Source: a virus
Taxonomy: Duplodnaviria; Caudoviricetes
Length of the DNA stretch: 61,476 nucleotides
IMG/VR virus record: IMGVR_UViG_3300035670_000213
Location: 1-61,476 of that record
Reading direction: 5' to 3' (one strand)
Both the position numbers and the translations under genes were made by a program. Shown piece by piece: positions 23,440 to 24,586 of the stretch (positions within the stretch are counted from its first letter, which is position 1; each line of letters opens with the position of its first letter). The notes under the pieces are model-generated. The model searched no databases and was not told the origin of the DNA. It was given only the letters and a program-made list of their open reading frames with translations.

Positions 23440-24586
23440 CATTATGTTCACCTAAATTCGTTATTTTTAGGCTGTAGTTTTGTTAAACCACTACTTTACG
23501 TCTCCGTAAAGAACAGACTATATCATCATTTCAGATTTGTTGATATTTAAAATCGAGTCTGAAAGTTGGGCATTTCCATTCACTTGAATGTACTCCCCTT
23601 CGGGATAGTCGTTGAACCTTTCGCTTCGCTTAGCGACTTGGCTGCTGATTGTCTCTATCAATAAATTTTTAGACCGTTCTCTATCCTTTGAATTTCCATC
23701 AGCCCAAACCACACAAATGACATTGAATCCTTGTTTTATGGATTCACGAAACTTCAATTTATTAGTTTCAAGGTGATTCATTAAAGTGAATAACGATTTA
23801 ACTTCAATTAAAGTGTTCATGTGTGGTATGTATATATCGGGATGATATGTATGTAATTTATCATCAATTCCGATATATTCTACTTTTGGTATATTACCAT
23901 TATCAACAACAATATCAATAGGATTGAGTATATCAATCAACACATCTAATACTCTATCTTCATACCCTTGGATTTGGTATTCCATCCCATTAAGAATATA
24001 TGATTTATTTCTATAGGTATTTCTTTTCAATCCAATTTCGGTATAAATTCTCTTCTTTTCTTCTGCATCCATTTTTGCATATCGTTCGAGCATCTTTTGT
24101 CTCATATGTTCTCCATATGAAGTACCAACATTTCTCGAAACAGTTTCCATCCGTTTTTTGTTAATAACTTGTATATCATTATTAGCAAATCTAGAAGCTA
24201 TCATTTTATTTACGATTTCATCTTTTTCTTCTTGGGTTTTACCCAAAAACGGACCTTTATGTATACCAGATTTCGAACTACAATTTATCGAACAATACTT
24301 CCTATATGCGAATTTCACAAAAGGTATATCACAACCACAAATCGCACAAAACCCCTCATCAGGTAGTTTGTAATGTTCGTCATAATATTGTTTCTTATCA
24401 ATATTATGTTTTTTTAGTAATCTCACAATAGTAATTTTATTATGATACTTACCATCTAGTTCAGAAAAGAATTTTTTATTGTTGTTGTTCATGATAGCGA
24501 TTGAATAGATTGTGGTTTTATTGCTTAACGAGAGTTTCCAGCAATTAACCCAATTTTATTTCCGCTATTATTTATAAGAAAAATTA
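23440..24586 (-). mobile_element. Group I intron (IA2-like) in gp32 carrying an endonuclease ORF
   Basis: 5' splice site CGU^UAA with P1 UUCCGUUA/UAGCGGAA; P AAUUGCUGGAAA, Q AAUCAGCAG, R GGUUCAACGACUA, S GAUAUAGUC; P3 UUGGGU/GCCCAA; ends GAACAUAAUG. Removal restores KVFLFR-YGKKIF in frame. Confidence 0.92.
23518..24492 (-). CDS. Intron-encoded homing endonuclease (Zn-finger plus PD-(D/E)XK)
   Basis: CAICG...YCS..C and YHPDIYIP....IEVKS motifs; lies inside the intron. Confidence 0.8.
   Translation of the reverse strand: MNNNNKKFFSELDGKYHNKITIVRLLKKHNIDKKQYYDEHYKLPDEGFCAICGCDIPFVKFAYRKYCSINCSSKSGIHKGPFLGKTQEEKDEIVNKMIASRFANNDIQVINKKRMETVSRNVGTSYGEHMRQKMLERYAKMDAEEKKRIYTEIGLKRNTYRNKSYILNGMEYQIQGYEDRVLDVLIDILNPIDIVVDNGNIPKVEYIGIDDKLHTYHPDIYIPHMNTLIEVKSLFTLMNHLETNKLKFRESIKQGFNVICVVWADGNSKDRERSKNLLIETISSQVAKRSERFNDYPEGEYIQVNGNAQLSDSILNINKSEMMI

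Follow-up and report, generated by a model that had tools for sequence, protein, structure and literature searches.

A predicted self-splicing group I intron encoding a DUF7487 nuclease in gp32 of an uncultured T4-like phage

INTRODUCTION

Phage T4 carries group I introns in td, nrdB and nrdD. Their open reading frames (ORFs) are located in the P6 or P9 loops, and the td intron begins with an in-frame stop codon. Here, we describe an intron that likewise begins with an in-frame stop and that has its ORF in loop L5. It interrupts gp32, the gene for the protein that binds single-stranded DNA (ssDNA), in IMG/VR virus record IMGVR_UViG_3300035670_000213. This record is a metagenomic contig of 61,476 bases (estimated completeness, 33%), and its whole length is referred to below as the window. 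The element appears to fit a known kind, the mobile group I intron with a homing-endonuclease gene, as in T4 td, nrdB and nrdD.

According to the accessible part of PMC2988022, middle or late promoters within the introns drive the three T4 intron endonucleases, whose translation is late, and gp32 is needed for homing itself. Two nuclease families of other systems are relevant to the protein encoded in the window intron. The EDxHD family, to which I-Bth0305I belongs, has a conserved composite motif E-D-x-H-D that includes a catalytic histidine (PMC3239194, accessible part). The PD-(D/E)XK family of homing endonucleases, with I-Ssp6803I, is counted among six known families in the accessible part of PMC6083498.

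RESULTS

A group I intron separates two gp32 exons.

Two ORFs of the T4 gp32 family were found in the window, both on the minus strand. Exon 1 (25018 to 24587; 144 amino acids [aa]) matches positions 1 to 110 of the PF08804 profile (E value, 1e-22), and exon 2 (23439 to 22975; 154 aa), which starts with YGKKIF, matches positions 112 to 207 of 208 (2.9e-17). The exons are thus contiguous in PF08804, and once the intron is removed the whole domain is matched, as expected of a member of the T4 gp32 family. The best tblastn matches of exon 1 were ssDNA-binding proteins of T4-like phages (cyanomyovirus; identity up to ~59%), and a gp59 homologue is located directly upstream of gp32. Megablast of the region against GenBank phages gave no match.

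The intron between the exons occupies 24586 to 23440 on the minus strand (1147 nucleotides [nt]). It starts with an in-frame UAA and ends with ...GAACAUAAUG, the omega-G being at 23440; when unspliced, the exon 1 frame meets a stop codon immediately after CGU. Using cmscan, we detected a match to Rfam Intron_gpI (RF00028) at 23792 to 23494 on the minus strand (59.2 bits; gathering cutoff, 50; E value, 1.7e-12). A first-pass annotation, made from the letters alone, had proposed a group I intron in gp32; the covariance-model check and the contiguity of the exons in PF08804 both bear this out.

P1 could be read directly in the window. The last six bases of exon 1, UUCCGU (24592 to 24587), form its 5' strand and pair with the internal guide sequence (IGS) GCGGAA (24565 to 24560), giving 6 base pairs (bp) with a U.G pair at the splice site. 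The intervening loop L1 (24586 to 24566) contains TATAAATA (24576 to 24569) and AUA (24568 to 24566). The AUA stands next to the guide and can pair with UAU, the first three bases of exon 2, as P10. Joining of the exons at CGU/UAU gives ...EGKVFLFR-YGKKIFEK... and an intact gp32 of 298 aa.

For comparison with intronless genes, IMG/VR was searched with exon 1, and the best 80 of 597 related loci were kept. In 79 of these 80 gp32 loci, nothing separates residue 144 of exon 1 from residue 1 of exon 2 (gap 0); the 80th is cut off after exon 1. Because these 79 relatives abut exactly at the predicted junction, the intron boundaries are right to the base. The junction codons of the intronless relatives read (F/Y/W)(K/R/Q)-(Y/F)G, with TTCCGT itself in 7 of them and TTCCGT-TACGGC across the junction in five of the IMG/VR loci, and the break in the window falls within the conserved motif F(K/R)(Y/F)GKK. 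These data confirm the identity and the coordinates of the intron; both boundaries, the CGU/UAU junction and the 298-aa product had been called correctly in the first-pass annotation. We conclude that gp32 of this uncultured T4-like phage is very probably interrupted by a mobile group I intron of the IA type that is predicted to self-splice.

The catalytic core is complete and lacks P2.

From 5' to 3', the intron comprises P1, a joining segment (AUAAAA), P3, J3/4, P4, J4/5, P5, loop L5 with the ORF, P5', P4', P6, P7, P7.1, P7.2, P3', P8, P7', P9, P9.1, P9.2 and a tail with the terminal G. An alignment of 16 introns placed the 5' strands of P3 (UUGGGU), J3/4 (UAAU), P4 (UGCUGG), J4/5 (AAA) and P5 (CUCU) upstream of the ORF, at 24553 to 24531 (minus strand, as are all coordinates in this section). 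The 3' core, assigned by pairing and covariation, extends from 23656 to 23516 and holds P5' (AGAG), P4' (UCAGCA), P6, P7 (GACUAU), P7.1, P7.2, P3' (GCCCAA), P8 and P7' (AUAGUC). It is followed by P9 (23511 to 23494), P9.1 (23493 to 23475), P9.2 (23471 to 23451) and the 3' tail UGAACAUAAUG, the whole 3' end spanning 23511 to 23440. All core helices (P3, P4, P5, P6, P7, P7.1, P7.2, P8, P9, P9.1 and P9.2) pair without mismatch in the window, and so does every one of the 14 helices listed in all. The P1 with its U.G pair, the P3, the P9 hairpin and the terminal G noted in the first reading of the locus were thereby recovered.

Between P7 and P3', the window has two hairpins, P7.1 (CCC-GAAG-GGG) and P7.2 (CAUUC-AAGU-GAAUG), and both are present in relatives with different sequences. 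Such hairpins at this place are said to be the hallmark of subgroup IA (Michel and Westhof), and subgroup IA is therefore indicated. The label "IA2-like" used in the first-pass annotation is reasonable as far as IA is concerned, in line with the two hairpins and with the likeness of a related gp32 intron to the nrdB intron (see Discussion).

A single-sequence fold of the 3' 221 nt recovered the P6, P7.1, P7.2, P8, P9, P9.1 and P9.2 hairpins (z = -2.28; equalled by 4 of 200 shuffles). P9 and P9.2 covary across relatives; P9.1 is seen solely in the window, by direct reading and in the single-sequence fold, and it stands outside the counted helices. Two other placements were rejected. The Rfam placement of the 5' third (P2 to P5) at 23792 to 23700 lies inside the nuclease coding region and is unsupported by relatives, and at ~24553 to 24510, where a P2 hairpin had been considered, the alignment assigns the bases to the strands of P3, J3/4 and P4 and gives no conserved hairpin.

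Related introns occupy three positions in gp32.

A search for related loci with the window ORF alone found nothing, and a family profile was needed. The profile of ORF homologues found 42 IMG/VR loci, and in 21 of them gp32 exons flank the ORF. With the window included, the insertions fall at three positions in gp32. Site B, after CCCGU in (C/D)PV-(C/S), is occupied in L007, L008, L010 to L018 and L029. Site A-6, after UUCCUU in VFL-FKYGKK, is occupied in L001 to L009, L030 and L031. Site A, 6 nt downstream of site A-6, is that of the window intron. The survey of gp32 homologues for insertions that the first-pass annotation had proposed thus showed 79 of 80 genes uninterrupted at the window junction and related introns at two other positions, with none at the exact site. 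A blastn search with the whole intron at distant settings retrieved 37 records, each covering 4 to 9% of the intron (the conserved core) and none in gp32.

Boundaries were set for 19 introns: the window intron, 9 at site A-6 and 9 at site B. Each of the 19 has G as its last base and leaves the gp32 frame open. The window intron and all six distinct site A-6 introns start with an in-frame UAA or UGA. Furthermore, no start codon precedes exon 2 in the site A-6 relatives, so exon 2 is not translatable alone there.

Covariation was analyzed in 14 alignment rows, after three exact duplicates among the 19 introns and the two L008 introns (near-copies of those of L007) had been dropped. All 14 introns have a P3 of 6 bp, for which 9 distinct 5' strands are used. 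P4 is fully paired in 13 of 14, the exception being L015 with an insertion there; it is invariant and therefore uninformative for covariation. On the alignment of the 3' core, RNAalifold predicted 35 pairs, 24 of them with compensatory changes on both sides. In this core (P6, P7, P8 and P9), 96.1% of cells are paired, against 72.3 ± 1.4% after shuffling (reached by 0 of 500 shuffles) and 29.9 to 38.3% when partners were slid by 1 to 3 columns, a control that flatters the structure somewhat because the structure itself came from these sequences. Neither the number of pair types (59 versus 43.4) nor the P3 result depends on how the structure was derived.

The guide covaries with the exon: GAGG occurs with ..CCUU and GCGG with ..CCGU (IGS position 2 versus exon position -2). 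Compared to site A-6, the window intron is located 6 nt downstream, two codons of exon 2 have become part of exon 1, and GAGG has been replaced as the guide by GCGG, which is the guide used at the distant site B (CCCGU). The signal for the closest kin is mixed. The ORF favors site A-6 (37 to 40% identity versus 25 to 30%), whereas the 3' core slightly favors some site B introns (55 to 58% versus 49 to 50%).

Several family members differ in their ORF content. L030 and L031 (2894 to 3409) have a 516-nt site A-6 intron in which most of the ORF is deleted and the last third is kept. A scan with the Q-element AATCAGCAGCCAAG matched at least 116 IMG/VR contigs; among the matches listed, 115 are without gp32 nearby and only L166 has gp32, with an ORF-less insertion of ~470 nt at site B (~6392 to 6859). 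Two introns, at sites B and A-6, are present in each of L007 (345 to 3433) and L008 (1232 to 4320), each intron with its own DUF7487 ORF, and the two ORFs within one gene are only distantly alike. An alphaproteobacterial-type (permuted) transfer-messenger RNA gene was observed ~2 kb upstream of gp32 in two site B contigs (L012, 754 to 1050; L013, 672 to 1005; Rfam RF01849/RF04321).

Metagenomes contain the intron-plus allele and, on one low-depth contig, an intron-minus allele.

The stretch is present in runs of three studies, all apparently DNA; the run with all of it is labelled subsurface metagenome. In run X4, which belongs to another study, a 1325-nt contig (record 11) over 23374 to 24698 spans both junctions with 7 differences. 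In run X7, a contig of 340 nt at a depth of 3.3 connects 23440 with 24592, four other letters standing in between. On the gene strand it reads ...TTCCTG TATAAG TATGGT... (VFL-YK-YGKK), where TATAAG replaces TTCCGT. A spliced copy of the window allele would have the letters of the window exon at the joint, which this contig does not. It represents an intronless gp32 allele of a near-identical phage (...TTCCTGTATAAGTATGGT...) in which the two codons before the site are changed. The same run also contains a 185-nt piece of the intron ORF without differences. The three gp32 positions, the intron-plus and intron-minus alleles and the ORF-deleted derivative suggest that the intron family is mobile, presumably by homing.

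Contig depth in X4 rises to ~220 over 23566 to 23639 (conserved R-element/P7 region), and short contigs join the P4 and P4' regions with 16 letters between. Apparently, other ORF-less introns with the same core are abundant in this sample. Two further X4 joints, 23657 to 24525 and 23658 to 24528, were not used; they have 21 letters on one side and most likely come from other ORF-less introns that share the core.

The intron ORF encodes a DUF7487 protein with a PD-(D/E)XK motif.

The intron ORF (24492 to 23518, minus strand; 324 aa) is located in L5 and has its stop codon, UAG, in P7'. Residues 124 to 255 match Pfam DUF7487 (PF24308; 56.3 bits; cutoff, 27; E value, 5.7e-15), and the ORF also matches PHROG 15137, "endonuclease" (5.3e-7); a search against NCBIfam gave none. 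An N-terminal four-Cys finger is followed by a helical middle part and a PD-(D/E)XK nuclease domain. Invariant across 11 homologues are C49, C52, C67 and C71 of the finger and E178, P218, D219, E230, V231 and K232. The resulting E...PD...ExK motif is the canonical PD-(D/E)XK signature and places the protein in this superfamily.

In an AlphaFold model (mean confidence score [pLDDT], 71.3; nuclease domain, ~80 to 90; residues 286 to 324, below 50), the strands and helices of the nuclease core, which is alpha-beta-beta-beta-alpha-beta in this superfamily, are predicted within residues 163 to 263. A wide structural search with this model gave Vsr (Z, 9.3; root mean square deviation [rmsd], 3.7; 126 residues aligned), the catalytic domain of I-Bth0305I (Z, 8.4; rmsd, 3.2; 95/98), NGO0050 (Z, 8.0) and TnsA (Z, 7.6), with Hjc (5.8) and other members of the PD-(D/E)XK superfamily ranking below them in Z. 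The family profile run against all PDB sequences found only an FCS-type zinc finger (E value, 0.98), corresponding to the Cys finger. The nuclease assignment leans on the motif as much as on the predicted fold. The protein most likely acts as a homing endonuclease, as judged from motif and model.

The DUF7487 family comprises 2,933 cluster representatives at an E value of ≤0.001, 373 at 1e-10 and 11 at 1e-30. The neighbours of the ORF in the protein atlas are viral DUF7487 clusters, some with TnsA-like or NUMOD3 domains.

[quoted passage not shown]

The last ~46 codons of the ORF, from about residue 279, coincide with the P5' to P7' core, so that ~130 nt are shared with the catalytic core. ORFs that extend into the intron core are a known arrangement, according to the accessible parts of PMC3984707 and, for I-TevI, PMC2988022. 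The tails of the homologues look conserved ("LIETISSQ...RFNDYP"). Column conservation at codon positions 1/2/3 is 0.70/0.75/0.60 in the finger and 0.65/0.72/0.59 in the nuclease part; in the tail it is without codon periodicity (0.82/0.79/0.81 over P5' to P7 and 0.50/0.44/0.50 further on). Since this periodicity is absent, the ORF stops differ among homologues (overlap with the core, 29 to 133 nt from P4') and the tail is predicted to be disordered, the conservation of the tail is best read, from these alignments, as conservation of the RNA.

In 10 of the 13 other introns examined, the octamer TATAAATA, which we take to be the T4 late-promoter consensus, precedes the ORF start by 24 to 39 nt; L007_B, L017_B and the ORF-deleted L030 do not have it. 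The window copy is located within L1, so a transcript starting just after it would not contain the 5' exon. Six of the nine copies in the window stand 16 to 90 nt upstream of a same-strand ORF; because the octamer is not enriched window-wide, its position is what argues for a role. By analogy with T4, the intron ORF is probably expressed from its own T4-type late promoter.

Other features of the window.

A second interrupted gene is present nearby. The uvsW helicase gene is broken in two within 26636 to 29710 on the minus strand. Fragment 1 (29710 to 29204; 168 aa; UvsW_N) matches positions 2 to 142 of the phrog_16259 profile and ends with ...VVSVTG, followed by CLHPDTQIDV... (32 aa) and a stop. 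The first 118 aa of fragment 2 (28054 to 26636; 472 aa) end with ...GLTHHN, after which SGKSF... resumes at profile position 142; joining of the flanks would restore the Walker A motif TG-SGKS. The ORF between the fragments (28162 to 29223, plus strand; 353 aa) matches a PHROG "homing endonuclease" (1.3e-5), and Rfam gave no match in the gap between them. From its sequence, the break looks like a split intein (short N part, long C part) with a homing endonuclease gene. A similar arrangement is described for the "fractured genes" of ocean metagenomes in the accessible part of PMC3239194.

Downstream of gp32, a gene for a YodL-like protein was observed at 22557 to 22895 and, three genes from gp32, one for an RlaP-type nucleotidyltransferase (21407 to 22102, minus strand; 231 aa; Pfam PF10127, 6e-14). 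Three consecutive tRNA genes are located at 18226 to 19621 on the minus strand (Rfam, 47.6 to 67.5 bits).

DISCUSSION

We propose the following course of events. In the gp32 pre-mRNA, the last six exon bases UUCCGU would pair with the guide GCGGAA to form P1 with the U.G pair at the cut, and the core from P3 to P9 would fold around the ORF-bearing loop L5. Free guanosine would then attack 3' of the U at 24587. Exon 2 would be aligned by P10 (AUA/UAU) and by the terminal G at 23440, and ligation would yield ...FLFR-YGKKIF... in a 298-aa gp32. The PD-(D/E)XK protein would cut intronless gp32 alleles of coinfecting phages near the insertion site, and repair would copy the intron in. [quoted passage not shown] Catalysis, cleavage, promoter use and timing are the parts of this scheme that we infer.

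Several points weigh against this reading. A separate genome-search pipeline that applied RF00028 to the same record scored 6 candidates, none matching at an E value of ≤0.001; this discordant result comes from a different procedure, and cmscan itself passes the curated cutoff. P10 is just 3 bp, and the P2 hairpin, present in all 13 other aligned relatives, is absent from the window intron, with none between the IGS and P3. No relative in IMG/VR has an intron at exactly the window position. The intronless allele is one contig at low depth, and the kind of its run (DNA) is guessed; no RNA run is among those listed for the stretch. For the protein, Z scores of 8 to 9 are, according to the search tool itself, close to what a model lacking a clear Foldseek match usually reaches at best and only moderately above background, and Foldseek of the ORF model against PDB gave no match at an E value of ≤0.001, the weak rows being all PD-(D/E)XK enzymes. 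Finally, TATAAATA of the window lies 84 nt upstream of the ORF start, not about 30, its 9 copies in the window compare with 8.9 expected, and no clear Shine-Dalgarno sequence was seen before the ORF.

The intron might splice but no longer be mobile, its DUF7487 protein being inactive or only a maturase and its inheritance vertical. The window element has indeed lost P2, no identical-site relative was found in IMG/VR, the nearest ORF relatives are just 37 to 40% identical, and the ORF-deleted L030 and L031 show that decay occurs in the family. However, the ORF is of full length with all family-invariant residues kept, including E178, D219, E230 and K232, near-identical intron-plus and intron-minus alleles are both present in run X7, and the codon periodicity of the zinc finger and nuclease parts indicates protein-level selection across the family; we therefore consider immobility unlikely. 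A tentative extension, which we regard as rather doubtful, concerns the family as a whole: DUF7487 would be a large unrecognised family of canonical PD-(D/E)XK homing endonucleases that, with an IA-type ribozyme, colonised gp32 at three positions, and the shift of the window copy would be in keeping with a move from one CCGU site of gp32 to another through reverse splicing, instead of through homing by the endonuclease alone.

That gp32 is truly split into two polypeptides, with a free-standing nuclease gene between them and a ribozyme-like relic that no longer splices, is highly improbable. A stop codon directly follows the CGU of exon 1, an in-frame GUG/AUG precedes exon 2 in the window (ORF 22975 to 23451), and uvsW with its intein-like halves shows another kind of split gene nearby, but the core helices are all intact in the window and kept by compensatory changes across the family, exon 2 is without a start codon in the site A-6 relatives, and the break falls inside the F(K/R)(Y/F)GKK motif. 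Still harder to credit is a misassembly that joined the intron into gp32. Although the window is a metagenomic contig and conserved cores of other elements are abundant in the same samples (the depth spike at 23566 to 23639 in X4), the 1325-nt contig of a different study spans both junctions, and 21 other IMG/VR contigs have the same kind of interruption. A mobile, self-splicing intron in gp32 remains our preferred reading.

The first-pass annotation held for the junction and was incomplete in its account of the architecture: the DUF7487 ORF, its overlap with the core, the absence of P2 and the family in many uncultured phages had all been missed. Its view of gp32 as a gene in which no intron has been described is in agreement with the literature searched and with the accessible parts of two reviews. 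From the stoichiometric need for gp32 it had also predicted that splicing would have to be very efficient. No paper on a gp32 intron or on DUF7487 was found in that literature, with the reservation that the supplementary endonuclease-host lists of PMC3239194 and its source paper could bear on priority; the accessible parts of PMC2988022, PMC1524935, PMC5107563, PMC3239194 and PMC3984707 name neither. As far as searched, gp32 as a host gene and DUF7487 nucleases as intron-borne proteins are new.

With gp32, a protein at the core of replication, recombination and repair in all T4-like phages joins the list of intron hosts. Automatic gene callers will give gp32 of such phages as two fragments and a "hypothetical protein." A testable function is now available for DUF7487, a large domain of unknown function, and, if site-specific, its members would be new long-target nucleases from a family not yet exploited. 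The three insertion points, the twin-intron genes, the ORF-less and ORF-deleted forms and the copy shifted by 6 nt form a natural series in which the coevolution of ribozyme, guide and endonuclease can be studied. The sharing of ~130 nt between a coding sequence and a catalytic RNA core can be studied in it as well.

Among the described systems, I-Ssp6803I resembles the window protein in its PD-(D/E)XK catalytic motif within a group I intron-encoded protein; it was absent from the 50 best structural matches and from the PDB profile search with the window ORF family. I-Bth0305I of the recA group I intron of Bacillus phage 0305phi8-36 is likewise an intron-encoded nuclease in a phage recombination/replication gene, with an N-terminal DNA-binding part followed by a C-terminal nuclease (PMC3239194, accessible part). 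Its catalytic domain (3r3p_B) was the second-best structural match; at the sequence level, the family profile did not match 3r3p at an E value of ≤1 among all PDB sequences. Unlike I-Bth0305I, the window protein has a four-Cys finger instead of NUMOD repeats in its N-terminal part. The 11-sequence DUF7487 alignment contains no invariant or nearly invariant His, and since the family is without a conserved histidine, it does not carry the EDxHD motif.

Free-standing DUF7487 genes are present in cultured T4-like Vibrio phages (Va1, "HJR family nuclease"; SRILMA, "endonuclease"), with ~30 to 43% identity over the nuclease domain. In contrast to the window ORF, they are intergenic, directly downstream of the major capsid gene, and are not intron-borne; as free-standing genes they resemble the T4 seg/mob genes.

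The closest described counterparts are the introns in td, nrdB and nrdD of T4 and the T-even phages, with I-TevI and I-TevII as well as I-TevIII. Unlike these, the window intron has gp32 as its host gene, encodes a PD-(D/E)XK (DUF7487) nuclease, not a GIY-YIG or HNH enzyme, and is without P2, and its splicing and homing are predicted from sequence. The core of the ORF-less gp32 intron of L166 is ~71% identical over ~150 nt to the T-even nrdB intron (RB3, U5 and others). The same site B intron also resembles (70.5% over ~150 nt) the core of an Intron_gpI feature in Escherichia phage vB_EcoM_G2285 (30908 to 31059), in a gene annotated as [quoted passage not shown] Like the T4 introns, the window element is an IA-type group I intron in a DNA-metabolism gene of a T4-like phage. 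As described for them in the accessible part of PMC2988022, its putative endonuclease ORF loops out of the core and reaches into it at the 3' end, and a candidate promoter is located inside the intron.

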